A stretch of DNA of 27,755 nt from an uncultured bacterium (GCA_964626085.1 CAZVCQ010000002.1:1-27755), one strand, 5' to 3'. Shown: positions 10,151 to 23,953, counted from the stretch's first letter. Notes: generated by a model from the letters alone, not told the origin. Numbers and translations are program-made.

Positions 10151-10177
10151 TATAGGTCATATAGGTCCTATTGGTCC
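10151..10177. repeat. 9-bp tandem repeat (3 units) across the iscS stop codon
   Basis: tataggtca tataggtcc tattggtcc. Confidence 0.65.
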
Positions 10178-11412
10178 AATTCTTGTTCGTGCTCATGTTC
10201 GTCCTCGCACGTCTCGCCCGGCTTCACTGCGTAGGGGTCCTCGCCCCTCTGGAACTTTGCGTACAGCGGTGACATCTGCCGCAGTCGCTGCGCAATCGGC
10301 GGTAGCTTGTCGAGAAAATGGTTCACGTCGGCGTCGGTCGAGTCCTTGCCCAGGGTCAGAACCAGCGACGACTGGGTCTTGGTGTGGGGCAGGCCCATCG
10401 CCAGCAGCACGTGCGACGCCTTCAGGGTCTTGGCCGAGCAGGACGAACCGGACGCCGCGGCGATGCCCTCGTCGTCGAGGAACAGGAGCATCGATTCGCC
10501 TTCGACGAACTCGACCACCACGCTGACGTGGCCGGGCAGGCGGTTCGACATCGGGCCGGTGAAGATCACGTGGTCAAGCCTCTCCGGCAACTCCTTGAAG
10601 ATGCGCTGCGCCAGCCTCGTCATCGTCTCCGACCATTCGGAGAGCCGTGCCTCGGTCACCGCGGCGGCGGCGCCGAACCCGACGATTGCGGCGACGTCTT
10701 CGGTGCCGGCGCGGCGGTTCCTCTCCTGGAAACCACCCTCGACGAGCGACTGGATGCGGGTGCCGCGTTTCAGGTAGAGCGCAGCCGCGCCTTTAGGGCC
10801 GTAAACCGACATGGCCGGGAACGTGTAGGCGTCAACGTCCAGTCCGGCCACGTCCACAGGAATCCTGCCGACCGCGGCAGTGCCGTCGGAATGGAACGGT
10901 ATCCGGTACCGGTGCGCGATTGCGGCCAGCTCCTTGATGTTCTGAACCGTGCCGACTTCATAGTTCGCGTGCATCACGGACACGAGAGCCGTCTCCGTCT
11001 TGATGGCGGCTGCCAACTTGTCCGGATGGACCAGACCCTCGGCGTCGACCGGCACCTCGGTGAATTCAAACCCGAGTGTACATAGCGACTTCAGCGGCTC
11101 CAGTACCGACACGTGCTCGATCGAGGAGACGACGATATGGTTGCCCTTGTCCCGGTGGGCCAGGGCGAAGCCCTTGATGGCCTGGTTGTTCGACTCGGAA
11201 GCAGACGCGGTGAAGACAATGTCGTCGGGCCGGGACTTGATGAGTGCGGCGACCTGGGCGCGTGCGGTTTCGATTGCCTCCTTCGGTTTGTTTCCGAAAC
11301 GGTGCAGACTAGCCGGGTTCCCGTACTCCTCGGTGAGGAAGGGCAGCATCGCCTCCCGCGCTTCGTGCAACAGCGGCGTAGCAGCGGCGTTATCGAAGTA
11401 TGCAGCAGCCAT
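10168..11412 (-). CDS. iscS: Cysteine desulfurase-like protein (IscS/NifS group I) lacking the canonical PLP lysine
   Basis: YFDNAAATP, YGNPASLH, EHVSV, MHANYEVG, RAGTE and SGSSC (catalytic Cys). The SxHKxYGPKG motif reads PAMSVYGPKG. Confidence 0.92.
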   Translation of the reverse strand: MAAAYFDNAAATPLLHEAREAMLPFLTEEYGNPASLHRFGNKPKEAIETARAQVAALIKSRPDDIVFTASASESNNQAIKGFALAHRDKGNHIVVSSIEHVSVLEPLKSLCTLGFEFTEVPVDAEGLVHPDKLAAAIKTETALVSVMHANYEVGTVQNIKELAAIAHRYRIPFHSDGTAAVGRIPVDVAGLDVDAYTFPAMSVYGPKGAAALYLKRGTRIQSLVEGGFQERNRRAGTEDVAAIVGFGAAAAVTEARLSEWSETMTRLAQRIFKELPERLDHVIFTGPMSNRLPGHVSVVVEFVEGESMLLFLDDEGIAAASGSSCSAKTLKASHVLLAMGLPHTKTQSSLVLTLGKDSTDADVNHFLDKLPPIAQRLRQMSPLYAKFQRGEDPYAVKPGETCEDEHEHEQELDQ

Positions 11413-11472
11413 AACTGTTAGACAACCTTGGCCTTGAGCCGGGTTCCTTTCCTTTGGCGTCGCATCGCCCTA

Positions 11473-11500
11473 AGTCTAGAATCGGGTTTGGCCAAGTCAA
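11473..11500 (-). promoter_or_regulatory. Sigma70-type promoter for the iscS operon
   Basis: TTGACT-16 bp-TAGACT on the minus strand. Confidence 0.6.
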
Positions 11501-11521
11501 ATCAGGGCCGCGCCGGGTATG

Positions 11522-11917
11522 GCGGAGACGGGCGGCGAAACCGGCGCAAGACCTCGCGCGTTGGTTGCGCCCGCAACCGGTACAGCAACGGGGGCTGCAA
11601 TCGGGGAGATGGTTCGAGGGATGATTGTTCGGACAACGGGGGAGATAGCTCTCGGGAGAATGGGGAGAGCAATGAGGACCGCTACTTGACCCGCAGCGGG
11701 CTGGACTCCGGGCCGGGCAACAGGTAGGACAACGGGTAGAGTGATGGGCCACGCGATGGTCAGAGTGATGGGGCAAGCGGCCGGGGCTATCGTCGTCCAG
11801 ATGACGGGGACGACGACGAGCCAGACAGCCGTGGAGATGACTCGGGCCGCGATTCACCAGACGACTCACCACACGATTGGGGAGACTCTCTACCTCACCA
11901 TTCCCCCTACCATCCCT
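11522..11917. repeat. Degenerate 12-bp periodic array, 33 units
   Basis: Units such as acagcaacgggg, cggacaacgggg, aggacaacgggt, agagtgatgggc, agagtgatgggg and cacacgattggg fit the pattern NNN-RYN-RYN-(G-rich, becoming C-rich at the 3' end). Confidence 0.7.
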
Positions 11918-11965
11918 TGAATTCGCGCCGTTGCGCCTAAGGCGGCAATCTCCAGGTAGATACGC

Positions 11966-11994
11966 TTGAAAACCGGGTGAACGGCCTGTAGCCT
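11966..11994 (+). promoter_or_regulatory. Sigma70-type promoter for the XRE gene
   Basis: TTGAAA-17 bp-TAGCCT, then GGAGGT RBS at 12011-12016. Confidence 0.55.
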
Positions 11995-12022
11995 TATACG
12001 CCTACAAGCTGGAGGTTAGACT

Positions 12023-13177
12023 ATGGCGCATCATTCCAAGACCGCGCTCGATTTCGGCCCTGAGTTCAGGGCGAGACTCCGTGAGCTACGGAAGCGACGG
12101 GGGCTTACTCTACGCGCGATGGCGCTGCTGATGGATCGGCAGGGCGTGGGCGCGCACGTACAGCTTGCCCGACTTGAGAAAAGCCAAGTGAAGTATCCGT
12201 CCATCAATCTGATTGCCGACTATCTGCGGGCGTGCGGCGCTGGCTTCGAGGACCTGCTCGACTTGCTGAAGCCGCACACCTCGCAACGACCGGTGCTGAA
12301 GCAGAAGGGTGACGCGGCGGTGGCGGAGTTACTCAAGAGCCTGCCTAAGGCAGAGCAGCGTGCAATGCTCCGGTGGGAGAGGGCCACCGTTGCGGCACGT
12401 GAGGAGAAGGCGGCGGCACAGCCGGAGAAAAAGAAACCGCGGGTCGAGACAGGTAGGCAGCGGGTGTTTCGTATCGTCTGGTCGTTCATCCACGCAAACT
12501 GGAACGAGGTCTTCGAGCAGAAGCTGTACGAGGCGATGCTCAAGGTCAAGGATGAGGTGCCGCGGAGCCGGCGCAGGGACGCCTGCAACTATGGCCGCAG
12601 GTTCTTCGGAATCCTGACCCGGCACTACCGGCACGAGGCGCGCCGAGCGAGCGCTTTGGAGCGGGTCGAGCGCGATACAAGAAAGGCTGGATTCTCGAAC
12701 CAGGTCGTGGCGATGCTGCGCGATGCGGCGAAACAGGCCTACAGGGAACTGCTCTTGTCGGGACGGCTCGACTGGGAGCCGACTCCGGAGGAACTGGTGA
12801 AGAACAGGGGCCGTGCGCCGAAGGTTGAGAGGGCCGAGACACGGCTCGAGATGGACGAGGTCAGGCCGATTGAGGCAGCCAACAAGATGCTTGGCGTCAT
12901 CGATGCGCTGGCGGTGCAGGAAGTCGGTGCGCGTCTGGAGAAGTTGAAGATTGCCCACTACCACGGCCGGGATTACTACATCTTCTGGATTCACGGACTG
13001 ATTCCCATCGCCTACGCGCATGGAACGGATTCGCCGGAGTGGAAAGCAGAGGTCGAGAAGTGGGTGCCGAAGCTGCACGACCCTGAGTTTGCGCGCGAGG
13101 CGGCCAAGATGGTTGCGGACATCTACAACCGCTGGAAGGTCAAGCTGCCGCCGAAGCCGGGCCGAACCGAGGATTGA
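12023..13177 (+). CDS. XRE-family HTH protein with a long uncharacterised alpha-helical C-terminal region
   Basis: N-terminal RARLRELRKRRGLTLRAMA...LARLEK....PS...IADYL.A.G is an XRE HTH. Strong RBS. The remaining ~290 aa were not recognised. Confidence 0.85.
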   Translation: MAHHSKTALDFGPEFRARLRELRKRRGLTLRAMALLMDRQGVGAHVQLARLEKSQVKYPSINLIADYLRACGAGFEDLLDLLKPHTSQRPVLKQKGDAAVAELLKSLPKAEQRAMLRWERATVAAREEKAAAQPEKKKPRVETGRQRVFRIVWSFIHANWNEVFEQKLYEAMLKVKDEVPRSRRRDACNYGRRFFGILTRHYRHEARRASALERVERDTRKAGFSNQVVAMLRDAAKQAYRELLLSGRLDWEPTPEELVKNRGRAPKVERAETRLEMDEVRPIEAANKMLGVIDALAVQEVGARLEKLKIAHYHGRDYYIFWIHGLIPIAYAHGTDSPEWKAEVEKWVPKLHDPEFAREAAKMVADIYNRWKVKLPPKPGRTED

Positions 13178-13179
13178 AC

Positions 13180-13249
13180 CACAAAGACACAAAGGCACAA
13201 GGAACACCGGGCCGGAATCGACCGCAGATGACGCAGATTGCGCCGAGCG
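13180..13249. repeat. Adjacent 8-bp and 9-bp tandem repeats
   Basis: cacaaaga cacaaagg cacaagga (13180-13203) and cgcagatga cgcagattg cgccgagcg (13223-13249). Confidence 0.65.
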
Positions 13250-13297
13250 GGGACATGACCCAATTCCGCCGGGGAATTGGGATCGTGGCCCAAGCCC
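13249..13297 (-). repeat. Palindromic element, intergenic copy (same family as 26123-26168)
   Basis: Minus strand reads gggcttgggccacgatcc-caattccccggcggaattg-ggtcatgtcccc. Confidence 0.8.
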
Positions 13298-13332
13298 ACA
13301 TGAGCAGAGCAGGCCCGATTTGAATTCTAGCC

Positions 13333-13360: not shown

Positions 13361-13408
13361 GTCAGCTAGGAAACCGTGAATTCCGAGACGGGCGGCCCGA
13401 GCCGCGGC

Positions 13409-13480
13409 CGGCATCTGCCCTCGGACTTATTCAGGGTTCGGGCCGTGGGCAGTACGCAGTCCGCCGTGGGCCGTCACCAA
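13409..13480 (+). pseudogene. Decayed remnant of a C-terminal sorting domain in the 5' leader of the array
   Basis: RHLPSDLFRVRAVGSTQSAVGRHQ aligns without gaps to the array CTD end (RHLAPGVYFVR from 24329; VRAVSRELSAVSGHK from 24821). It contains five GC-starting heptamers (13442-13476). Confidence 0.55.
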
Positions 13481-13489
13481 GGAGGTAGT

Positions 13490-14326
13490 ATGAAGTTTGC
13501 ATCTGTGCTGTTGGCTATCGGCTGCGTGGTTTCGACTCTCTCGGCCCAGTGGTTGGAAACGACGATATCATTGCCCGACAGCTCCTTGCCTAATGACCTG
13601 TGCTACAACCCGACCGACAACAAGGTCTACGCTGCCAACTGGGGTACGGACAACGTTACGGTCATCGACGGCGCGACCAATACGATCGTCGCCACCATTC
13701 CGACCGCCGCCGAGCCGTCGTACTTCTGCTACAACTCACAGGGCAACAAGGTCTACTGCACGCACTACACGTCCGGCCTGGTTTCGGTCATCGACGCCGG
13801 GGTCGACACCGTGCTTGTGGTGATTCCTGCGGGCCCGTATGCGAGCAGCATCTGCTACAACCCGACCGACAATAAGGTCTACTGCCCGAGCTCCATGAAC
13901 AACAGCGTCTACGTGATCGACTGCGCGGCCGACACGGTCATCGCCAGGATCGCCTGCGGCGACTATGCCTGCGCGATGGTGCACAACCCGGTGCAGAACC
14001 GGGTCTACGTGATGAACCTAAGCGCCAATTCCATCTCGGTCATCCGCGACAGTACGCCGGCGGGAATCGAGGAAGGCCCGATGCCGCGAGCTGCCAGACT
14101 CCGGACGGCTGCCACCATCGTGCGCGGAGAGCTGCGCATGGAGGCTGGCTCAAGCGCAAGCTCAAGCCCAAGCTGGCTGCTGGACGCGGCGGGGCGGAGG
14201 GTCATTGAGCTTCAGGCCGGCGCGAATGACGTGTCCAACCTCGCGCCCGGCGTCTATTTCGTGCGTTCGGAGCCAGGCGCGGTGCTTGATGCGTTAAGCG
14301 CCACCAAGGTCGTGATTCAGAGGTAG
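13490..14326 (+). CDS. Secreted YVTN/YncE-like beta-propeller protein (short form) with C-terminal sorting domain
   Basis: GGAGG RBS and signal peptide at ATG 13490, CYNPTDNKVY...V.VIDG repeats, CTD TIVRG...LLDAAGRRV..L..GANDVS.LAPGVYFV...KVVIQR. Confidence 0.88.
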   Translation: MKFASVLLAIGCVVSTLSAQWLETTISLPDSSLPNDLCYNPTDNKVYAANWGTDNVTVIDGATNTIVATIPTAAEPSYFCYNSQGNKVYCTHYTSGLVSVIDAGVDTVLVVIPAGPYASSICYNPTDNKVYCPSSMNNSVYVIDCAADTVIARIACGDYACAMVHNPVQNRVYVMNLSANSISVIRDSTPAGIEEGPMPRAARLRTAATIVRGELRMEAGSSASSSPSWLLDAAGRRVIELQAGANDVSNLAPGVYFVRSEPGAVLDALSATKVVIQR

Positions 14327-14338
14327 GGAGGAATGACA

Positions 14339-15904
14339 ATGCTGAGAGCGTGTTCATTGCTGTTTGTTTTCGCCGCCGCGGCCATCGCTCAGCCCGATAC
14401 TACCTGGGTGCGCCGCTACGACGGCCCGGGCCACGGCTGGGACGAACCGTCCGTGATGAGGCTGATCGGCGACCGGGTATACGTGGCGGGCCAGAGCCGG
14501 GGCGACGGTTCGGGCTACGACTACGCAACCGTGGTCTATGACCTCGACGGCGACGATCTTTGGTCCGCTCGGTACAACGGGACCGGCAACGACCGTGACG
14601 AGATCACGGATCTCGTTGTCGACAGCGACGGCAACGTCATAGTGACCGGGTACAGCGAGGCCCCCGGCGGCAACTCGAACTGGGTGACCATCAAGTACGA
14701 CCAGAACGGCGACACGCTCTGGCTGGGGCGTCACAACTCAGGCGCCGGGGCTGCGGGAGTAGCGGTCGACGACTCCGGCAACGTCTATGTCACCGGCGGC
14801 GCGGGCAGCTACCCCTACGTCCGCCTCAATACCATTCGCTACGGTCCGGATGGAACCCAGCACTGGCTCGCCGAGTACTACCCGCCGGCACCGAACCGGG
14901 TCAACACGCCACGCGCCATCGCCATCGACCCCAACGGCTGCCCGATTGTCGCCGGCGGAGGCACGAGAGACTCCACCGGCCACGACATCCTCATCATCAA
15001 GTACAACCCGGTGACCGGCGAATCGCTCTGGGTCGCCCGCTACACGTCGTCCGGCGACGAAGGCGATGCCGCAGGCGCGATGGTTCTCGACGCCTCCGGG
15101 AACATCTACGTCACCGGGTATTTCCACGGCGGGACAACCGACCGGGACATCATCACGATGAAGTACTCGCCCGACGGGGCGCTGCTGTGGCTGGACACCT
15201 ACGACGGGCCGAACAACGGTAGTGACGCCGGGGTGGATATCGAACTCGGCGAGGACGGCAACATCTATGTCGCCGGCAACGTCAACCGCGGGTCGTCCAA
15301 CGACGATATGGCAGTCATTAAGTACAACCCGGCGGGAGAGACGCTCTGGGTCAGGCTGTACAACTACCCGACAAACCGCACGCACCGGGCCTACGCCCTC
15401 GCACTCGACGGCGAGAACAACGTCTACGTCTGCGGCTATCTCTGGACCGGGACCTCCTACGACTACCTGACGGTCAAGTACGACACCGACGGCACCGAAT
15501 TGTGGTATGTCCGCTACAACACCTACGAAGGCCAGGAGGACGAAGCCTACGACATCGCCCTCGACGACGCCGGTTTCGTCTACGTCACCGGGCGGGCCAA
15601 GGACTCGCTTAACAACTTCGACTACGCCACCATCAAGTACAGCCAGTTCAGCGGCATCGCGGCAGAGCCGAAGGTGGAAGTCCGAAGAACGAACTGCCCG
15701 ACCATCGTCCGCGGTGTCCTGTTCCTGGACGGGGGCTGTCCCCACACCGGGGCTGTCCCCGAGGCTGCCCTGCTCGACATCTCCGGCCGCAAGGTGCTCG
15801 ACCTCAAGCCGGGCGCCAACGATGTCCGCCACCTCGCGCCCGGTGTCTATTTCGTGACACAGCAGAACATCGGCTGCAGCAAGAAGATCGTTGTGCGAGA
15901 ATAG
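14339..15904 (+). CDS. Secreted SBBP-type beta-propeller repeat protein with C-terminal sorting domain
   Basis: Repeats of W..RY.G....D......D..GN.YVTG......D..TIKY. The second ATG (14339) fits the RBS spacing better than 14333. Confidence 0.88.
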   Translation: MLRACSLLFVFAAAAIAQPDTTWVRRYDGPGHGWDEPSVMRLIGDRVYVAGQSRGDGSGYDYATVVYDLDGDDLWSARYNGTGNDRDEITDLVVDSDGNVIVTGYSEAPGGNSNWVTIKYDQNGDTLWLGRHNSGAGAAGVAVDDSGNVYVTGGAGSYPYVRLNTIRYGPDGTQHWLAEYYPPAPNRVNTPRAIAIDPNGCPIVAGGGTRDSTGHDILIIKYNPVTGESLWVARYTSSGDEGDAAGAMVLDASGNIYVTGYFHGGTTDRDIITMKYSPDGALLWLDTYDGPNNGSDAGVDIELGEDGNIYVAGNVNRGSSNDDMAVIKYNPAGETLWVRLYNYPTNRTHRAYALALDGENNVYVCGYLWTGTSYDYLTVKYDTDGTELWYVRYNTYEGQEDEAYDIALDDAGFVYVTGRAKDSLNNFDYATIKYSQFSGIAAEPKVEVRRTNCPTIVRGVLFLDGGCPHTGAVPEAALLDISGRKVLDLKPGANDVRHLAPGVYFVTQQNIGCSKKIVVRE

Positions 15905-15913
15905 GAGGATTCG

Positions 15914-18454
15914 ATGAAAGTAACTGCGTTCTTTCTGATTCTGATGGCGGCGTTTGTCGCGCTGCCTGAGCCTGCATCTGCAGAGGAATTCCTGATTGAC
16001 GCAAGCTTCGCGTACGAACCTTGCCCGGGCGAGCAGGAACTTCCCGCCGTGGCGTTCGACGGTACCAACCACCTCGTGGTCTGGCGCAACTTCGACGGCA
16101 GTCAGTATGACATCCTCGGCGTCAGGGTCAGCAGCGGCGGCGAGGTTATGGACTCCGCTTTCATCGCCATCGCGGCCGACAGCGGACACCAGCAGGCCCC
16201 GGCGGTCGCGTACGACGGAACGAACTGGCTCGTGGTCTGGCAGGATGCCCCGGCCGGCAACCAGATTCGCGGCGCCAGGGTAGGGCCTGACGGCACCATC
16301 CTTGACCCGGACGGATTTCCAATCCTGGTCGGAGGTGGCAGGCAGCAACCGGCTGTTGCCTTTGACGGAGCCAACTACATGGTCGTATGGGCCGAGATGC
16401 GTGGAGGTAATCGTGATGTTCTCGGTGCCCGCGTTACGCCGGGCGGCGCGGTCCTTGATAGCGCTGGTTTCGTCATATCCGGTGCGGCCAATCATCAGCA
16501 GGCCCCCTCGGTCGCGTTCGGCGCCTCGGGTTATCTCGTTGCCTGGGAGGACTTCCGGAGCGGAAGCGGCTTCGATTTGTACGCGGCCCGGGTGACAACG
16601 GCGGCGCAAGTGCTCGACACAGCCGGGATTGTCATGTCGGCGGCGGCAAATACGCAGTCCGGCTCCGCGGTCGCGTTCGACGGGACCAACTATCTTGTCG
16701 CTTGGGACGACATACGCAACGGCTACAATCCGGATGTATTCGCGACCCGCGTCAGCCAGGACGGTACGGTGCTCGACCCGGACGGAATCGCGGTTTCCAG
16801 AACCCCCTACGGTGACCAGTGGGGGGTGGCGGTGGCGTTTGACGGGACGAACTTCCTTGCGGTCTGGTCCGACTACTACCTTCGTGAAATCTACGGTGCA
16901 CGGGTTTCGTCCGCCGGCGCGGTGCTCGACACGCTCGGGTTCGCCGTCTCCCACGGCTACGACAACTCCGACCTCTACCCGGCAATAGGGTTCGACGGGG
17001 CCGACTACTTCGTCGCATGGCAGTACAAGTACAACACCCACTACGACATCCACGCCGCGCGGGTCACGCCCGGCACCACGGTGCTGGACCCGACCGGCAT
17101 CGTCATCACCCGCGGCGCCCCGGTGGCTTACTACGAGTTCAACCCGGCGGTCGCCTCGAACGGTACCGACTACCTCGTCGTCTGGGATGACTCCCGTCGA
17201 AACGAGGCCGACATCTTCGGCGCGCGGGTCAGCCAGGGCGGCAGCGTGCTGGACCCGACCGGCATCGCGATATCCTTCGCTGAGGAGAACCAGGACTATC
17301 CCTCAGTCGCCTTCGGCAGTTCGAACTACCTTGTGGTCTGGGAGGACGAGCGCGACGGTGGCAGCGAGGACATCTACGCCGCGCGGGTCAGCCCGAACGG
17401 AATGCTCCTCGACCCGGCCGGCATCGCGATATCCATGGCCGACGGCGTGCAGGAGGATGCGCAGGCTGCGTTTGACGGGACCAACTTCCTGGTAGTGTGG
17501 CAGGACTACCGGAATACGCACTCCGACATATACGGGGCGCGTGTCAGCCCGGGCGGCCTCGTGCTTGATACTGCGGGCATACCGGTTGCGGGTCTGCAGT
17601 CGGCAGAGGAAGACGCTTCGGTTACGTTCGGCGGCACCAACTACCTGGTGGTCTGGGAGGACTACCGGGATGCGGACGCTGACATCTATGCCGCACGGGT
17701 GAGCCCGGCTGGCTCGGTGCTGGACCCAACCGGGTTCGCGGTCGCAACGGCAGGAGAGGACCAGTGCTTTCCGGTGGTCGCGTTCGACGGAACCAACTAC
17801 CTGGTGGTATGGCATGATGCGCGGGGCGCTTCAGACAACGACATCTACTGTGCCCGGGTCACGACGGCGGGCTCGGTGCTCGACCCGGACGGCATCGCGG
17901 TGTGCACCTCGGCTGAGAACCAGGAGTACGCGAGTGTCGCGTTCGACGGGACCGACTACCTGATTGCCTGGGAGGACTACCGCAACGATCCAGATACGTG
18001 TGACGTCTACGGCGCGCGGGTCAGTACAGCGGGCGCCGTGCTCGCACGCTTCCCGGTGTCGGTCCACGCGAACTGGCAGTGCGACCCGGCTCTTGCCCGA
18101 GGCGCTGGCAGCCAGGTCCTGACCGTGTTCACCGGTTGGGTCGACGAGCACCAGGGTAGCAACTACGACGCCGAGCGAACCTGGGGCACATTCGACATGG
18201 CTGGCGTAGCCGAGCACCCGACGTCCGCGGTGACCGGCTCACTGCCCGTTGCGACCGTCGTGCGTGGAATCCTGCGGCTGCCCGGAGCCCCGACCTCGGT
18301 CCCTAGGTCCTTTGCCTGTCTGCTAGATGCCTCCGGCCGGAAGGTGTTTGATCTGGAGCCCGGGCCGAACGATGTGAGCCGGCTGGCGCCGGGCGTGTAC
18401 TTCGTCAGAACCAATCAAGAGAAGCGACTGCAGAGAATAGTCATCGTCAAATAA
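15914..18454 (+). CDS. Large secreted repeat protein (PAVAFDGTNYLVVW repeats, probable beta-propellers) with C-terminal sorting domain
   Basis: About 12-13 repeats of P.VAFDGTNYLVVW.D.R....DIYGARV...G.VLDP.GI; signal peptide and CTD. Confidence 0.88.
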   Translation: MKVTAFFLILMAAFVALPEPASAEEFLIDASFAYEPCPGEQELPAVAFDGTNHLVVWRNFDGSQYDILGVRVSSGGEVMDSAFIAIAADSGHQQAPAVAYDGTNWLVVWQDAPAGNQIRGARVGPDGTILDPDGFPILVGGGRQQPAVAFDGANYMVVWAEMRGGNRDVLGARVTPGGAVLDSAGFVISGAANHQQAPSVAFGASGYLVAWEDFRSGSGFDLYAARVTTAAQVLDTAGIVMSAAANTQSGSAVAFDGTNYLVAWDDIRNGYNPDVFATRVSQDGTVLDPDGIAVSRTPYGDQWGVAVAFDGTNFLAVWSDYYLREIYGARVSSAGAVLDTLGFAVSHGYDNSDLYPAIGFDGADYFVAWQYKYNTHYDIHAARVTPGTTVLDPTGIVITRGAPVAYYEFNPAVASNGTDYLVVWDDSRRNEADIFGARVSQGGSVLDPTGIAISFAEENQDYPSVAFGSSNYLVVWEDERDGGSEDIYAARVSPNGMLLDPAGIAISMADGVQEDAQAAFDGTNFLVVWQDYRNTHSDIYGARVSPGGLVLDTAGIPVAGLQSAEEDASVTFGGTNYLVVWEDYRDADADIYAARVSPAGSVLDPTGFAVATAGEDQCFPVVAFDGTNYLVVWHDARGASDNDIYCARVTTAGSVLDPDGIAVCTSAENQEYASVAFDGTDYLIAWEDYRNDPDTCDVYGARVSTAGAVLARFPVSVHANWQCDPALARGAGSQVLTVFTGWVDEHQGSNYDAERTWGTFDMAGVAEHPTSAVTGSLPVATVVRGILRLPGAPTSVPRSFACLLDASGRKVFDLEPGPNDVSRLAPGVYFVRTNQEKRLQRIVIVK

Positions 18455-18463
18455 GGAGGTACC

Positions 18464-19840
18464 ATGAAGTTCGCAACCGTGCTGCTGGCCGTATGCTGTT
18501 TGCTGTCAGCCACGTCGGCACAGTGGCTGGAGACGACGATATCATTGCCCGCCAGTTCCTGGCCCAATGATCTGTGCTACAACCCAACCGACAACAAGGT
18601 CTACTCTGCCAACTACAACATCGGCAGCATCACAGTCATCGACGCCGCGACCAATGCGATCGTCGCCACCATTCCGACCGCCGCCGAGCCGTCGTACTTC
18701 TGCTACAATTCACAGGGCAACAAGGTCTACTGCACTCACTACAGCGACAGCCTTGTGACGGTAGTCCACGGCACCGGTGACAGCGTCATAACGACGTTTC
18801 GAGCCGGACTGAACGCAAGCAGCATCTGCTACAACCCGCAGGACAACAAGGTCTATTGCCCGAATTCCTCAAGCGACAGCGTCTTCATAGTCGACGCTGC
18901 GGCCGACACCGTCATCGCCGTCGTCGGCACGGGCGACATTCCGAAGCAGCTCTGCTACAATCCGACCGACAACAAGGTCTACTGCTCGAACGTCGGCGAC
19001 AGGACCGTGACGGTGATTGACGGCGCGGGCGACACCGTCATTGCTACGGTCGCGGCCGGCTCCGCGCCCGGCGTCATGGTCCACAATGTCCTGAATGACA
19101 TGGTCTACGTCGCCAACGCGGGCGGTGACAGCGTCATGGCTATCGATGGCGCGGCGGACACCGTCATCGCCACCATCCCGACCGGCGACGTGCCCCGCGC
19201 CCTGTGCTTCAATCGGGAGTACAACAAGGTCTACTGCGCGAACGCCGGCAGCGACAACATCTCGGTCATCGACTGCGCCACCAACGCTGTCATCGCCACG
19301 GTCCCGGCGGGCGACGCGCCCTTTGCGATTCTGAGCAACGACGTCAACAACACCGTGTACTGCTCGAACTCGACCAGCGACGAAGTCGTGGTTGTCGACT
19401 GTGCCGCCGATTCGGTCATCGCCAGAATCGCGTGCGGCGACTACGCCAGCCTGATGGCGCACAACCCGGTGCAGAACCGCGTCTACGTGCTGAACATAGA
19501 CGACAATTCCATTTCGGTCATTCGCGACAGTATGCCGGCGGGAGTCGAGGCGGACCCCACGCCGCAGGCCGCAAGTCACAAGCCCGCGGCTACTATCGTC
19601 CGCGGAGTGCTGGACCTGGGAGTAGGCAGTAGACAGCAGGCAGTAGACAGGGCGGCACTGTCTGACAGGGGTCGCTGCGGCCAACTGCTGGATGCGACGG
19701 GGCGGAAGGTCGCGGAGCTTCACCCCGGCGCGAATGATGTGAGCGGGTTGGCGCCGGGCGTGTACTTTGTCCGTGTGCAGCTGGCCGTCGGCCCCGCGCT
19801 GTCAGCCGCAAGCAGCTACAAGGTCGTAATCCACAAATAG
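18464..19840 (+). CDS. Secreted YVTN/YncE-like beta-propeller protein (long form) with C-terminal sorting domain
   Basis: Paralog of the 13490 gene with about four extra CYN..NKVYC repeats. Confidence 0.88.
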   Translation: MKFATVLLAVCCLLSATSAQWLETTISLPASSWPNDLCYNPTDNKVYSANYNIGSITVIDAATNAIVATIPTAAEPSYFCYNSQGNKVYCTHYSDSLVTVVHGTGDSVITTFRAGLNASSICYNPQDNKVYCPNSSSDSVFIVDAAADTVIAVVGTGDIPKQLCYNPTDNKVYCSNVGDRTVTVIDGAGDTVIATVAAGSAPGVMVHNVLNDMVYVANAGGDSVMAIDGAADTVIATIPTGDVPRALCFNREYNKVYCANAGSDNISVIDCATNAVIATVPAGDAPFAILSNDVNNTVYCSNSTSDEVVVVDCAADSVIARIACGDYASLMAHNPVQNRVYVLNIDDNSISVIRDSMPAGVEADPTPQAASHKPAATIVRGVLDLGVGSRQQAVDRAALSDRGRCGQLLDATGRKVAELHPGANDVSGLAPGVYFVRVQLAVGPALSAASSYKVVIHK

Positions 19841-19849
19841 GGAGGAATG

Positions 19850-21061
19850 ATGACCAAGAACGTATTTCTGTTGGTGCTTGTGCTGGCGGTCGCCGGGACC
19901 GCACGGGCTGATTCGCTCAACTGCCGGGGGCTCGGGCGCTTTGACACACCGGGTCTGGCCGTTGGTGTGGCGGTGTCCGGGAACTACGCATACGTGGCGG
20001 ATGGGGATTCGGGGTTGCGTATCATCGACGTGAGTAATCCGGGAAGTCCGTTTGAGGCAGGGCACCAGGCAACGCCTGGCTATGCCCGCCGTGTGGCGGT
20101 ATCCGGGAACTACGCATATGTGGCGGCCGCGGATTCGGGCCTGCGCATTGTTGACGTAAGCAGCCCGCAAAGCCCGCATGAAGCCGGGCACTACGTCACG
20201 CCGAGTTGGGCCTATGTCGTGGCGGTGTCGGGCGACTTTGCCTACGTTGTGGACGAAGATACGCTGCGCATCATTGACGTGAGTAATCCGCAGAGCCCGG
20301 CTGAGGTCGGGCGTTTCGGCGACCCGGGCTTTGCCTTTGCCGTGGCCGCGTCCGGGAACTACGTCTATTTGGCGGACGACAACCAGGGACTGCGCATCAT
20401 CGACGTGAGTAACCCGCAAAGTCCGTACGAGGCCGGCTACCACATCACATCGGACTGGGCCTATGGCGTGGCGGTATCCGGCAGCTTCGCCTATGTGGCT
20501 GCCCGCTCCGCGGGACTGTGCATCATCGACGTTAGCAACCCGCAGAGTCCGTATGAGACCGGTTCCTACGCCGTCATGGCCACCGGCGCGGCGGTGTCCG
20601 GCAACTTCGTCTACGTCGTGGACGGTTCTGCAGACCTGTACGTCATCAACGTGGGTGACCCGCAGAGCCCGAGTGAGGCGGGGCACTATGGCACTCCGGG
20701 TACCCCATGTGTCGTGGCCGTGTCCGGGAACCTCGCCTATGTCGCGGACTGGGATTCGGGCCTGAGCATCATCGAGTTCTACGGTGCGGGGATTGAGGAA
20801 GTGCCGCTCGCCGAAGTACGAGCGGCGGATCCGATGCCGACGGTTGTGCGTGGGGTGCTGGTGCTCGGCGCTGTAGGCAGTAGACAGAATACAGAATACA
20901 GGGGAGGACTTATGGATGCGGCGGGGCGGAAGGTGATGGAGCTTCACGCCGGCGCGAACGATGTGAGCGGGCTGGGCCCGGGCGTGTACTTTGTGCGTGC
21001 GGAGCAGGCACAAGCCCAAGCTCAAGCGCAGGCAATCCGCAGGGTCATGATCGTGAGATAA
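19850..21061 (+). CDS. Secreted LVIVD-repeat protein with C-terminal sorting domain
   Basis: About seven repeats of [11 protein letters not shown]....GL.IIDVSNP.SP.E.G. The start could be 19847 or 19850. Confidence 0.9.
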
Positions 21062-21070
21062 GGAGGACTC

Positions 21071-23953
21071 TTGAAGCGTAGCATTTTCATCGCGCTGTTG
21101 GTTTCGTTCACTTCCGCGCGGGCGCCGGTCGAGAACTGGGTCAGTCACTACAACCGGGTCAACAGCGACGACGAGGGTCTCGTCCTTGCGACTGATGCCG
21201 CGGGTAGCGTCTACGTTGCCGGTCGGAGCTGGGGACCGAACCACGACCCGGCCCTCCTGACGGTGAAGTACGATTCGACCGGTGGCGAGGTCTGGACCGC
21301 GCGGTTCGACGAGGCGGGCATCGACGCCCCGGCCGCGATTGCGGTTGATGCGTCCGGCAACGTCTACGTGACCGGGCAGGCGGGGCAGGCGGTGAACAAG
21401 TCCGACCTCATCACGTTGAAGTATTCGCCGTCCGGTGCGGAGTTGTGGCGCAGCCGCTACTCGGATCCGTCCGACGCGAGCGACGTGGCGGCGGGGATTG
21501 CGCTCGCGCCCGACGGTGCGGTCTACGTCCTCGGTTCGAGCTGGATGCCCGGGGGTTGTGCGGTCGTGCTCGTCCGCTACAGCTCGACCGGGACCGAGGA
21601 GTGGGTGAGCCGGTTCTTCCCTAAGGATTCAACCTGGAACTGCGGCCGGGCGGTGGCGGCGGACGCGGGCGGCGCGTGGGTTGCCGGCGCTTCGGACGGC
21701 AGCTACCTCGTGATGCGTTACCGCGCGAACGGTGACACCGCCTGGGTCCGGTACTACAGCGGGGCCGGACAGGGCGACGCCCGCGGCCTGGTGCTTGACG
21801 GCTCGGGCGTGGTCGTCACCGGCCAGCTCGTCACGTCGGGCATGGACCTTGACTATGTGACGGTGCGGTTCGATTCGAGCGGGCAGAGCGACTGGTCCGC
21901 GGTCTACGACGGTCCGGCCCACAGTCACGACCAGGCCTACGCAATCTGCCGCGATTCGGCGGGCGGCATCTATGTCACCGGCCGCACCCAGGCTTCGCTG
22001 CGCAACGTCGACTACGCCACCGTCAAGTACTCGCCGTCCGGCAGCCAGCGCTGGGTCGCGCTCTACTCCGGTCCGGATACCGCCGGAACCGACGTGGCCT
22101 GGGCGGTGGCTTCGGGTCCGCACGGCCGGGTCTGCGTCACCGGCCAGAGCTGGTCCGACGTGGCGGCTGAGGATTTCGACTACGCCACCGTCTGCTATGA
22201 CACCGGCGGTACCCGGCGCTGGGTCGACCGCTATTCCGGGACCGGCGGGGGACGCGACGAGGCGGTCTGCCTGGGGTTCACGCGGTCCGGGCGGGTGGTG
22301 GTCAGCGGCCGCAGCCTCAATGCGTCCGGGGATTTCGATTTCGTCACGATCGCTTTCGACACCGCCGGCGGCCGGGCGTGGCTGGCGACGTACGCCGGGC
22401 CGGGCGGTCCGGGCACCGGCGGCGAGTCCGGGCTCGCAATCGGCCGCGACCGGTCGAGCAATCTCTATGTGTCGGGCGGAGACGCGCAGGACGTCATCAC
22501 CGTGAAGTACGACGCCGGGGGCAATGAGCTGTGGCAGCGGGTTTATGACGGCGGCAGCCGCGGCATCGACGCCTGGCGGGGGATGACCGTGACCGAGGAC
22601 GGCGACGTCCGGGTCCTGTCCCGGAGCCAGGTCCCGCTGCCGGCTCCGCTGACAACCGTCTACGCGGTCGCGCGCTACTCACCGGACGGCGACGAACGCT
22701 GGGTCGCAACCTACTTCGGCCCGGACAGCACCGACGCGGACCCGGTCGCGCTCTGCACCGACGCCTCGGGAAACAGCTACGTGACCGGCGGCGTGCTCGA
22801 CTCGTTCACCGTCGCCTGGCACACCATCAAGATCGACTCGACCGGCGCCCGGCGGTGGCTCGCGGTGATGAGCCGGACGGATACACTCCAGCTTTACTCC
22901 AACCCGCGCTGCATCGCGGCCGACGACAACGGCTACGTCTACGTCGGCGGCGAACAGGACAGCCTCGGCGGGTTCGAAGACATGATGCTGATTCGCTACC
23001 GGCCCGACGGCGGCGAGGACTGGCGCGCCCGCTACGCCGGCCCGGGCCTCGGCATCGACCTGCTCCAGTGCCTGGTCGTGGACGCGGCGGGCAACGCCTT
23101 TGCCAGCGGCCAGAGTTGGGACTCCGTCACCGGCTACAATTTTGCGACCATCCGGTTCACCCCGACCGGCGAGACCGCCTGGGTCCGACGCTACGCCGGG
23201 CCGGGCGGGCTGAGCAATGAAGACAAGCCGTGCGCCGTGGCGCTGGACGACTCGGGCAACGTCCTCGTGACCGGGTCGAGCTGGGCGGATTCCTCGATGG
23301 ACTACCTCACCGTCAAGTACGCGCCGGACGGGCAACAGCTCTGGACCGCGCGCTACGACGGTTCCGGGCATCACACCGACGTGCCAACCGCGGTCACGGC
23401 CGACCGCGCCGGCAACGTCTACGTCACCGGCTACGGGTGGCAGGATGGAACGCTCTGGGATTATACCACCGTGATGTACTCGGCTGGCGGCGCGGAGCGT
23501 TGGTCGCTCAGGTATCACGGAACCGGCAACTACTACGACAAGTCGCTTGGCCTCGTTGTCGAGGACTCGATGCACCTATGGGTCACCGGTGCGAGCGTGG
23601 CCGCGGGCCAGAACTCAGACATGGTGACCATCTACTACGGTCCGGACCCGGGCCTGGCCGGTGCCGAACCGGTGTCGATGCGGGCCCGGCTGATGGTTCG
23701 TCCCGGCATCGCGACGCGTCGGGTCAGCGCCGCGCTCTTTCTGCCGACCGGCGGATCGGTCCGGCTCGGCATCTACGATTGCAGTGGCCGGCTCGTCCGG
23801 TTGTTCGTCGAGGCCGAACTGCTGCGGGGACGTCATGACTTCTCCTGGAACGGCGTCGACGAACGCGGCCGCCGCTGCCCGGCCGGCGCTTATTTCATCC
23901 GGGTGAACACGCCGTCCGGCCCGGCGGTCGAACGCGTCGTCTTCATCCGCTAG
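21071..23953 (+). CDS. Large secreted SBBP-type beta-propeller repeat protein with FlgD-Ig-like C-terminal domain
   Basis: Tandem W...Y.G...D....A.D..GN.YVTG repeats. The CTD IYDCSGRLVR...FSWNGVDERGRRCPAGAYFIR differs from the other CTDs. TTG start with AGGAGG RBS. Confidence 0.88.
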   Translation: MKRSIFIALLVSFTSARAPVENWVSHYNRVNSDDEGLVLATDAAGSVYVAGRSWGPNHDPALLTVKYDSTGGEVWTARFDEAGIDAPAAIAVDASGNVYVTGQAGQAVNKSDLITLKYSPSGAELWRSRYSDPSDASDVAAGIALAPDGAVYVLGSSWMPGGCAVVLVRYSSTGTEEWVSRFFPKDSTWNCGRAVAADAGGAWVAGASDGSYLVMRYRANGDTAWVRYYSGAGQGDARGLVLDGSGVVVTGQLVTSGMDLDYVTVRFDSSGQSDWSAVYDGPAHSHDQAYAICRDSAGGIYVTGRTQASLRNVDYATVKYSPSGSQRWVALYSGPDTAGTDVAWAVASGPHGRVCVTGQSWSDVAAEDFDYATVCYDTGGTRRWVDRYSGTGGGRDEAVCLGFTRSGRVVVSGRSLNASGDFDFVTIAFDTAGGRAWLATYAGPGGPGTGGESGLAIGRDRSSNLYVSGGDAQDVITVKYDAGGNELWQRVYDGGSRGIDAWRGMTVTEDGDVRVLSRSQVPLPAPLTTVYAVARYSPDGDERWVATYFGPDSTDADPVALCTDASGNSYVTGGVLDSFTVAWHTIKIDSTGARRWLAVMSRTDTLQLYSNPRCIAADDNGYVYVGGEQDSLGGFEDMMLIRYRPDGGEDWRARYAGPGLGIDLLQCLVVDAAGNAFASGQSWDSVTGYNFATIRFTPTGETAWVRRYAGPGGLSNEDKPCAVALDDSGNVLVTGSSWADSSMDYLTVKYAPDGQQLWTARYDGSGHHTDVPTAVTADRAGNVYVTGYGWQDGTLWDYTTVMYSAGGAERWSLRYHGTGNYYDKSLGLVVEDSMHLWVTGASVAAGQNSDMVTIYYGPDPGLAGAEPVSMRARLMVRPGIATRRVSAALFLPTGGSVRLGIYDCSGRLVRLFVEAELLRGRHDFSWNGVDERGRRCPAGAYFIRVNTPSGPAVERVVFIR

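Follow-up and report, generated by a model that had tools for sequence, protein, structure and literature searches.

The stretch of DNA considered here, termed the window, is a sequence of 27,755 nucleotides from an uncultured bacterium of candidate division WOR-3 (GCA_964626085.1, CAZVCQ010000002.1:1-27755; genome assembly of 3.5 Mb in 661 contigs). In this window, the cysteine desulfurase gene iscS and a divergently oriented gene encoding an XRE-family protein are separated by an array of phased 12-bp direct repeats (Table 1), which fills the interval from the conserved promoter region of iscS to the promoter of the XRE gene itself. An initial annotation, made from the sequence alone, had assigned both genes with coordinates and identities that were upheld by our analysis, and had put forward the array and the XRE gene as an undescribed module. 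In agreement with the latter claim, no description of such arrays was found in the literature.

Table 1. Features of the iscS–XRE locus in window coordinates, with examples of famC genes
Feature	Position	Strand	Evidence or remark
iscS, class-V aminotransferase/cysteine desulfurase	10168..11412	-	Pfam Aminotran_5, E 1.9e-65; conserved housekeeping gene, read away from the array
Conserved region upstream of iscS; promoter-like sites on both strands, divergent and overlapping	11413..11505	.	Promoter scan, 2 sites vs 0.2 expected
Non-coding array, 33 phased 12-bp direct repeats	11522..11917	+	Unit NNN-RYN-RYN-GGS
In-frame TGA within the x-phi-phi-G frame	11687..11689	+	One sign among several of an unmaintained frame
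Putative XRE promoter, TTGAAA (11966-11971), 17 nt, TAGCCT (11989-11994)	11966..11994	+	Read from the sequence
Imperfect palindrome GTAGCC-TTATAC-GCCTAC overlapping the -10	11988..12005	.	Probable XRE operator; binding inferred
XRE-family gene, 384 aa	12023..13177	+	Ribosome-binding site GGAGG at 12012-16; 24 paralogs in genome
Helix-turn-helix domain, residues 14-81	12062..12265	+	Pfam HTH_31, E 3.3e-5; XRE/Cro/C-protein folds, Z 8-10
First helical-bundle domain with N-terminal arm, residues ~115-250	12365..12772	+	Probably homologous to famC/SIRV2-type capsids
Second helical-bundle domain, residues ~288-372	12884..13138	+	Possibly of the same kind
famC examples (loci L113, L111, L014)	G000:C575:1578-1946, C20:7569-7937, C49:2516-3265

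The 396 bp of the array divide into 33 head-to-tail 12-mers in strict phase. In the autocorrelation of 11522-11917, base identity at lag 12 was 0.46 (z 8.2 against shuffles), with further peaks at lags 24 (z 6.3) and 36 (z 7.0). No peak was found at lags 3 and 6, and the period is therefore not ordinary codon periodicity. Purines (R) occupied position 4 of the unit in 32/33 units and position 7 in 30/33, pyrimidines (Y) occupied position 5 in 29/33 and position 8 in 33/33, and positions 10-11 were mostly GG. Altogether, 124 of these 132 cells conformed to the purine/pyrimidine (R/Y) pattern, whereas 2000 shuffles, each maximised over phase, averaged 75 and never exceeded 93. The array is absent from the output of Tandem Repeats Finder because its units are too degenerate, their common feature being the R/Y pattern only. 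The plus strand is purine- and G-rich, in the same sense as the XRE gene. The periodic array of 33 units that the initial annotation had reported is thus real, as are its RYN-RYN core from 11582 onwards (25/28 units perfect), the C-rich turn of its final units and a period-12 peak above shuffled controls.

A survey of the whole genome identified 154-157 period-12 arrays, which together span ~39 kb, or about 1% of the genome. With the same detector, no arrays were found at periods 10, 11 and 13, and 54 were found at period 14. Alignment of 157 array profiles over 12 rotations and both strands gave a shared unit, R-C-A-R-Y-B-N-G-N-G-R-N, with 1.91 bits compared with ~1.0 in column-permuted controls; the unit of the window array is a degenerate version of it. 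Units had no dyad symmetry (mean z 0.23), and they were oriented towards the start of a co-directional gene in 57 cases vs 32. Among arrays linked to XRE genes, 16/17 were purine-rich on the sense strand. Divergent intergenic regions held 38% of the arrays, compared with a background of 15.5%. In random 20-kb samples, the complete genome of another genus (G014) contained five arrays in 120 kb, a similar density, and a low-GC genome of another family contained one array, with the unit YTAAT-NNN-RRGN. The arrays therewith form a lineage-specific class, about 155 strong in this WOR-3 genome, with one degenerate polar unit.

The cleanest arrays were mostly 320-385 bp long (12/14), an upper bound that may reflect an assembly limit, and 32/157 arrays lay within 150 bp of a contig end. 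Since arrays at contig ends probably break short-read assembly, the counts and lengths given here are lower bounds. Apart from this probable interruption of short-read assemblies, the arrays have a second practical consequence, in that spurious open reading frames arise from them when metagenome-assembled genomes are GC-rich.

Two further observations concern short repeats in this genome. The period-14 arrays are heptamer-based and, together with 29 arrays at period 21, look like a second short-period class; Tandem Repeats Finder rows touching this class occur in the window at 345-382, 791-821 and 19624-19650, and heptamer arrays inside sorting-domain loops had been noted in the initial annotation as well. 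In addition, many period-12 arrays end just before the promoter region in a small hairpin-like motif of a C-run and a G-run (e.g., CCCCACCAGTGGGG at L027, CCCCCCAGCGCAGGGGG at C234 and CCCAAGAGTTGGG at C59), followed by TCTGA or a G-rich motif. Possible roles for this closing motif, which the window array does not have, include those of a terminator, of a boundary and of a site of nucleation.

In the window array, the bases were nearly randomised within class and the R/Y pattern was kept, with transversion-type changes in only 8/132 cells. The transition-to-transversion ratio in arrays was only 51:33, and neutral decay therefore predicts several-fold more transversion-type cells than this. The result points to constraint on base class or DNA shape more than to neutral decay. 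It bears directly on an alternative explanation in which the arrays are neutral or selfish minisatellites, generated by a lineage-specific quirk of slippage or repair, carried along with fast-duplicating gene families and functionless. Indels between orthologous arrays were 12 nt long, so that gain and loss proceed one unit at a time. Such amplification would also suit the near-perfect arrays at L030 and C49, which imply that it was recent. Moreover, in one orthologous pair the arrays had diverged (0.062) about as far as third codon positions in the neighbouring gene (0.054), arrays lie at synteny break-points, and the same genome contains the 54 period-14 arrays. A neutral process, however, predicts a spread of periods and not 154 arrays at 12 with none at 10, 11 or 13. 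It also does not predict one polar unit template common to all arrays, an orientation biased relative to genes, or an R/Y pattern held by old arrays far beyond the expectation from a transition-to-transversion ratio of 1.5. MutS was present in 16/16 genomes searched, namely this genome and those of 15 relatives; mismatch repair was therefore not lost outright, and its simple loss does not explain the arrays. On balance, we consider functionless minisatellites improbable.

The array at locus L030 (G010:C432, about 2300-2710), upstream of an XRE ortholog, is nearly perfect and consists of ~30 copies of GAGGACTRCGGR. The relatives of this ortholog carry AGCAAY-type arrays, and the comparison provides evidence for replacement of a whole array through recent amplification of a new unit.

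Comparison with relatives placed the array at the edge of a variable region. Orthologs of iscS were found in 25/25 relatives searched, and at none of the 13 orthologous loci compared was iscS preceded by an array or by an XRE gene. At the orthologous loci of G009 and G003, blastn matching was confined to window positions 11410-11505/11510. Homology at the array-free loci thus stops at 11505-11510, the former position being about 16 nt before the array, and the comparison of occupied with empty iscS loci proposed in the initial annotation reveals a break just in front of the repeats. Likewise, similarity between loci L028 and L029 breaks off precisely where their arrays have their distal edge. 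Arrays are accordingly located at synteny break-points, and the region from 11506 onward, comprising the array, the XRE gene and presumably the genes at 13376-23953, is therefore a variable island. Beyond the XRE gene, the window encodes secreted beta-propeller/LVIVD proteins. The conserved segment on the iscS side contains a minus-strand promoter-like site for iscS (TTGACT-16-TAGACT, 11500-11473) and a plus-strand promoter-like site (TTGGCG-17-TAGAAT, 11454-11482) that would transcribe into the array. Both sites, within 11454-11500, share the symmetric core TCTAGA, and this region is kept in relatives without the array.

The strand polarity of the arrays and the plus-strand site directed into the window array raise the possibility that the array acts as RNA, as did the periodic non-coding RNA partner of the initial annotation. 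It might be a purine-rich sense leader or non-coding RNA, transcribed for example from 11454-11482, or, from the C-rich antisense strand, a transcript in which a YC motif recurs at 12-nt intervals might offer Rho a phased loading (rut) site and so stop divergent transcription. The promoter-proximal C-run/G-run hairpin on many arrays and the fold energy of the minus strand (z = -3.25) would fit such a role, and pairing that tolerates G-U would also give R/Y conservation. The fold energy of the plus strand, however, was that of random sequence (z = -0.01), and Rfam 15 gave no match at E <= 1 on either strand of 11300-12100. Four metatranscriptomes, with a depth of only 2-9, yielded no RNA contig over the array, although they covered iscS and iscU as well as a portion of the XRE gene. 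The rut version, furthermore, is extrapolated from Rho geometry. The non-coding RNA proposal did not find support in these results, and we regard an array functioning as RNA as quite improbable.

Read from the ATG at 11519, the window array gives x-[ATVIM]-[ATVIM]-G tetrapeptides, interrupted by one TGA (Table 1) and closing at the TGA at 11918-11920. The frame is as the initial annotation had described it; neither its suggestion of a decayed tetrapeptide-repeat gene nor the idea of a living gene for 33 such tetrapeptides survived comparison with other arrays. The pattern RYN-RYN-GGN does have low information at each third position (P = 0.044), and the frame is fully open in C27, C81, L026 and L032, ending with a conserved PPVG[LF]-stop. 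However, the 84 substitutions in three orthologous array pairs (L026/L032, L027/L031 and L028/L029) fell almost evenly on the three codon positions (27/30/27), whereas in two of these pairs the XRE genes next to the arrays had a third-position excess (53/46/99 and 6/7/21). In the homologous frame, L027 and L031 contain a TGA elsewhere than in the window and L029 contains two stops. In C472, C161 and C234, members of the C59 and C93 subfamilies in which the frame was recognised from the conserved 3' flank, there were 18-21 stops, or about one per unit. A wobble-like period-3 information pattern was found at P<0.05 in 15/157 arrays vs 8 expected, and most arrays had no spanning open reading frame; six-frame stop counts cannot split coding from non-coding sequence in GC-rich repeats, with frames of zero stops occurring on both strands. 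Neither start-codon conservation nor a ribosome-binding site was found for the array frame, and the three array frames of the window had no Pfam match. What has been kept is the DNA pattern and not a reading frame, and a coding origin of the array is extremely unlikely.

Clustering of the genes flanking the arrays gave three groups, namely proteins secreted by the type IX secretion system (T9SS), the XRE family and a family that we call famC. The T9SS-sorted cargo proteins carry Por_Secre_tail or FlgD_ig C-terminal domains, and arrays often lie directly downstream of their genes. On contigs C472, C59, C32, C73 and C413 (loci L011-L018), the order is cargo gene, array, XRE gene. Besides XRE and famC, neighbour clustering revealed no further conserved small protein beside the arrays. 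Of the 19 XRE paralogs with enough upstream sequence, 16 had an array in the preceding 350 nt; the same was true of 16/31 famC genes, but of only 66/2173 other genes, corresponding to an odds ratio of 57. The association recurs in relatives as well as in other genera. Arrays upstream of XRE genes typically end 80-110 nt before the start codon. The XRE protein, which the initial annotation had called an orphan, has 24 paralogs in the same genome, and its family occurs in 24/24 genomes of the same taxonomic family, in up to 25 copies each. Arrays were found upstream of XRE homologs at 12/16 loci in relatives and in at least four genera; they precede the homologs at L026-L032 (same genus) and at L035, L036 and L043 (other genera). 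XRE genes of this family thus generally have a 12-bp periodic upstream region, so that the refutation criterion set in the initial annotation turned out in its favour.

The same neighbourhood data also allow for an explanation without any link to XRE or famC, in which the array is a structural or insulator element upstream of promoters that separates or buffers transcription units. It could do so through intrinsic shape, with flexible pyrimidine-purine steps phased at 12 bp producing a superhelical path of one turn per seven units, or through another abundant nucleoid protein. The other genes downstream of arrays are diverse (topA, ABC ATPase, MFS transporter, DNA methylase and lptF/G), and the enrichment in divergent intergenic regions and the exact filling by the window array of the gap between two divergent promoters are what such an element would show. 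Conservation of the common unit at the R/Y level is as shape readout predicts, and the units have no dyad symmetry. This explanation nevertheless leaves the 57-fold enrichment before the XRE and famC families unaccounted for, as well as the exact period of 12, never 10 or 11; and if another protein binds the arrays, no candidate for it adjoins them except XRE and famC. For these reasons, a structural element unrelated to the two families seems unlikely to us.

Two parts of the XRE protein must be considered separately, beginning with its helix-turn-helix. The promoter sequence TTGAAA-N17-TATCCT/TAGCCT is kept at the equivalent place in XRE paralogs and orthologs, and in the window (11966-11994) it scores under the threshold of the promoter scan. 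In every XRE paralog, the stretch from the start codon back to a conserved TTGAMW -35 contains a palindrome that overlaps the -10. The recognition helix and the palindrome co-vary. The helix GAH(A/V)QLARLE pairs with GTAGSC-N6-GSCTAC (window 11988-12005, L028, L029, L032), GSFNLLAKLE with TGTATCC-N6-GGATACA (C27, L026, L027, L030), KKAGNLVGR with CCTAC-N6-GTAGG (C93, C100, C234) and NRGWQQAVSRFE with GAGCT-N2-AGCTC (C59, C472, C161). In contrast, the array cores do not track the recognition helix. The arrays of L026 and L032 are 94% identical, and their helices and operators differ; conversely, loci with the same helix have unrelated cores (L026/L027 vs L030, with GAGGACTRCGGR; L028, with RAAGC, vs L032). 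Because the palindrome co-varies with the recognition helix and the array core does not, the helix-turn-helix most likely represses its own gene through the palindrome over the -10. Across the four subfamilies, the operator/helix pairs amount to a clean series of natural specificities within this family of helix-turn-helix proteins.

These results also weigh on the proposal of the initial annotation that the array consists of iterons read base-specifically by the XRE helix-turn-helix, in the manner of a centromere or of replication iterons. The array does adjoin the gene of an autoregulated DNA-binding protein, as in tubC/TubR and parC/ParR, and the array core of the C59 group, AGAGCT, resembles an operator half-site. 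However, the co-variation lies with the palindrome, the units are not dyad-symmetric, no partition NTPase or Rep gene was found nearby, and ~155 chromosomal copies are ill-suited to a centromere. Sequence-specific recognition of the repeats by the helix-turn-helix is therefore contradicted by the family comparison, and we consider it very unlikely indeed.

The second family associated with the arrays, famC, has ~40 paralogs in this genome, many of 123 aa, and no Pfam match. It was present in all 41/41 genomes searched in the order, with 2-58 copies per genome. In a protein-database search, the named organisms among the best 120 of 217 matches were almost all WOR-3, and nearly every named homolog there was a hypothetical protein, with no Pfam domain among them. 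A protein-atlas search returned no match for famC. When the famC profile was compared with PDB sequences, the SIRV2 coat protein 3j9x_A ranked first (E 0.0023-0.0024), followed by that of SSRV1 (6wq0_A, E 0.004-0.03), and Adnaviria capsid proteins accounted for 7/7 top matches with the short-form profile and 6/7 with the full-family profile. The alignment covered SIRV2 residues 5-97, from the N-terminal arm through the bundle (KRIxxWxxK vs QRYAKWQAKF). Structural comparison gave a consistent picture. The AlphaFold model of famC (predicted local distance difference test score, pLDDT, 84) matched 6wq0_A, 3fbz_A and 3f2e_A in VIA-align with Z of 13.5, 12.8 and 11.8, respectively; the remaining capsid matches had Z of 10.9, 10.9 and 10.0, and the next unrelated match 7.6. 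It superposed on 5/6 capsids with a root-mean-square deviation (rmsd) of 1.4-2.1 A over 74-93 residues, and on 3fbz_A with 13.9 A over 107. Foldseek gave probabilities of 0.96-1.0 both to 3fbz, 3j9x and 3fbl in the PDB and to the coat proteins of SSRV1, SIRV and ARV1 in the viral library BFVD. Judged from profiles and models, famC appears to be a remote but consistent homolog of the major capsid proteins of SIRV2, SSRV1 and AFV1. To our knowledge, Adnaviria capsid proteins are not known from bacteria. The fold of the archaeal filamentous virus capsids has been called unprecedented among viruses of bacteria and eukaryotes (PMC7189273). In the nucleocapsids of SIRV2, AFV1 and PFV2, the asymmetric unit is one capsid-protein dimer with 12 bp of A-form DNA (PMC5517147, PMC7189273).

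The C-terminal region of the window's XRE protein, some 270 residues that the initial annotation had left unassigned, may be related to famC. The model of the whole protein (pLDDT 86) is all-helical, with the helix-turn-helix followed by helical bundles and no beta-strand. In hhalign, famC matched XRE residues 115-237 with E 7e-4, or 2.3e-4 against the C-terminal part alone (probability 26-44%), and residues 291-372 with E 0.0023 (probability 13%). Residues 151-250 aligned structurally with 6wq0_A and 3fbz_A at Z 9.4-9.7, and residues 288-368 with the AFV1 capsid protein 5w7g_B at Z 9.2 (rmsd 1.9 A over 78 residues), both within the range of generic helical bundles. These comparisons are suggestive of two capsid-like bundles related to famC. 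If so, the likely binder of the array would be this C-terminal region, by analogy with DNA-wrapping capsid proteins that have a 12-bp footprint. In this altered form, the cooperatively bound scaffold suggested in the initial annotation would survive.

The period of the arrays equals the published footprint of the capsid dimer, and the arrays are enriched before famC, which resembles these capsid proteins, and before the XRE family, which may do so. On these grounds, our favoured proposal, to which we assign a probability of roughly 0.45, is that capsid-like modules are loaded onto the array as onto a phased track. In this proposal, the helix-turn-helix would hold the palindrome GTAGCC-N6-GCCTAC over its own -10 and repress the XRE gene, and the capsid-like modules would polymerise along the array, one famC homodimer or one XRE single-chain pseudo-dimer per 12-bp unit; in the case of XRE, the protein already bound to the operator would be the starting point. 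Recognition of the units would depend mainly on shape, through phase, R/Y pattern and G-runs, and not on base identity. Such a nucleoprotein filament would lie directly upstream of the -35 and would set the activity of the neighbouring promoters or insulate them.

Several points weigh against the loading-track proposal. The link between array and capsid-like proteins consists of a numerical match (12 bp) and a genomic association, and since paralogs are not independent, the P-value of the enrichment is overstated. About three quarters of the arrays in this genome do not adjoin an XRE or famC gene, nor do any of the arrays sampled in G014 and G026, and the open reading frames beside the G014 arrays are not famC-like; most arrays would therefore need to be bound in trans. 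At L026 and L032, the nearly identical arrays accompany XRE proteins that are 57% identical in their N-terminal and 67% in their C-terminal part; this comparison does not support a joint inheritance of the array and the XRE gene or its C-terminal domain. The homology of famC to capsid proteins is remote, with sequence E-values of ~0.002. Four-helix bundles match promiscuously, and Z under ~13 can be generic. The profile of the XRE C-terminus, searched against the PDB, matched no capsid protein and only designed helical proteins. Finally, viral capsid proteins bind DNA without sequence preference, and a phased track is thus an added assumption.

The evolutionary scenario that goes with the loading track is more tentative. 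WOR-3 bacteria may have taken over an Adnaviria-type capsid protein, or may have it in common with these viruses through ancient descent, and may use it to coat cellular DNA. Expanded to dozens of paralogs and in one branch joined to an XRE helix-turn-helix, it would act on ~150 tracks phased at 12 bp, with one dimer per unit; the filaments formed there, perhaps with the DNA in A-form, would regulate promoters or insulate them. In favour of a comparison with the nucleocapsids of SIRV2, SSRV1, AFV1, SFV1 and PFV2, famC and possibly the XRE C-terminus have a predicted SIRV2-type fold and a weak but consistent similarity in sequence, including the arm motif (R/K)xxxW, and the 12 bp of A-form DNA covered by a capsid dimer in the virion equal the array period (PMC5517147, PMC7189273). 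Unlike their viral counterparts, however, the WOR-3 genes are chromosomal, bacterial and multi-copy, one version is fused to a helix-turn-helix, and no other virion genes were seen beside them. In addition, viral capsids coat the whole genome with no known phasing, whereas WOR-3 has discrete phased tracks of 300-490 bp.

In layout, the module resembles the centromere-type arrays of tubC/TubR, parC/ParR and the omega heptads, in which short head-to-tail repeats lie just upstream of the promoter of the binder gene; cooperative coating and autoregulation would be expected in both. The tubC of pBtoxis has 12-bp iterons. In prophage c-st, the tubC iterons are TTGAC boxes with 6-bp spacing (PMC6009700). 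Centromere-type arrays, in contrast, comprise 4-10 units, and WOR-3 arrays 25-40. The WOR-3 module also has no TubZ, ParM or ParA motor and no winged-helix or ribbon-helix-helix protein, and its ~155 chromosomal arrays differ in their cores, the unit being kept only at the R/Y level. The module would work like centromere-type repeat arrays, yet it is not a member of that group. As for particular systems, a type III partition centromere was rejected because the adjacent protein is an XRE helix-turn-helix with bundles and the neighbours are iscS and secreted beta-propeller proteins. A ribbon-helix-helix array system does not agree with the all-helical XRE model or with the lack of another small conserved protein beside the arrays, and replication iterons (17-22 bp, with a Rep gene) do not agree with 12-bp units, ~155 arrays and no Rep nearby. 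A CRISPR array was likewise rejected, given the period of 12 bp (a 5-6-bp core and a 6-7-bp variable part) and no cas genes seen in the window. The RRNPP regulators ComR, Rgg and PlcR also have an N-terminal XRE helix-turn-helix followed by an all-helical C-terminal region, and the best whole-length Foldseek matches of the XRE protein were ComR, Rgg2 and ElrR, which were insignificant (E 0.35-10). Assignment to this group was rejected on a TM of 0.17-0.23, an rmsd above 14 A, no tetratricopeptide repeat signature and no conserved small peptide gene. Overall, the protein parts seem closest to Adnaviria capsid proteins, and the mechanism of the system is one that we infer by analogy.

If the relationship of famC to the viral capsid proteins is true, capsid-fold homologs in all genomes searched of a bacterial order, at 2-58 copies each, would change the picture of where this fold lives and would reopen the exchange of parts between viruses and cellular chromatin proteins. 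The arrays would then be the first genomically encoded substrate with a period equal to the 12-bp footprint of a capsid protein. Should WOR-3 bacteria use such proteins to coat phased tracks, this would represent a new form of bacterial chromatin, with a DNA code that lies in phase and purine/pyrimidine pattern and not in the bases. Even without the capsid link, the devotion of ~1% of a genome to one strictly phased repeat class, conserved at the purine/pyrimidine level, calls for explanation.

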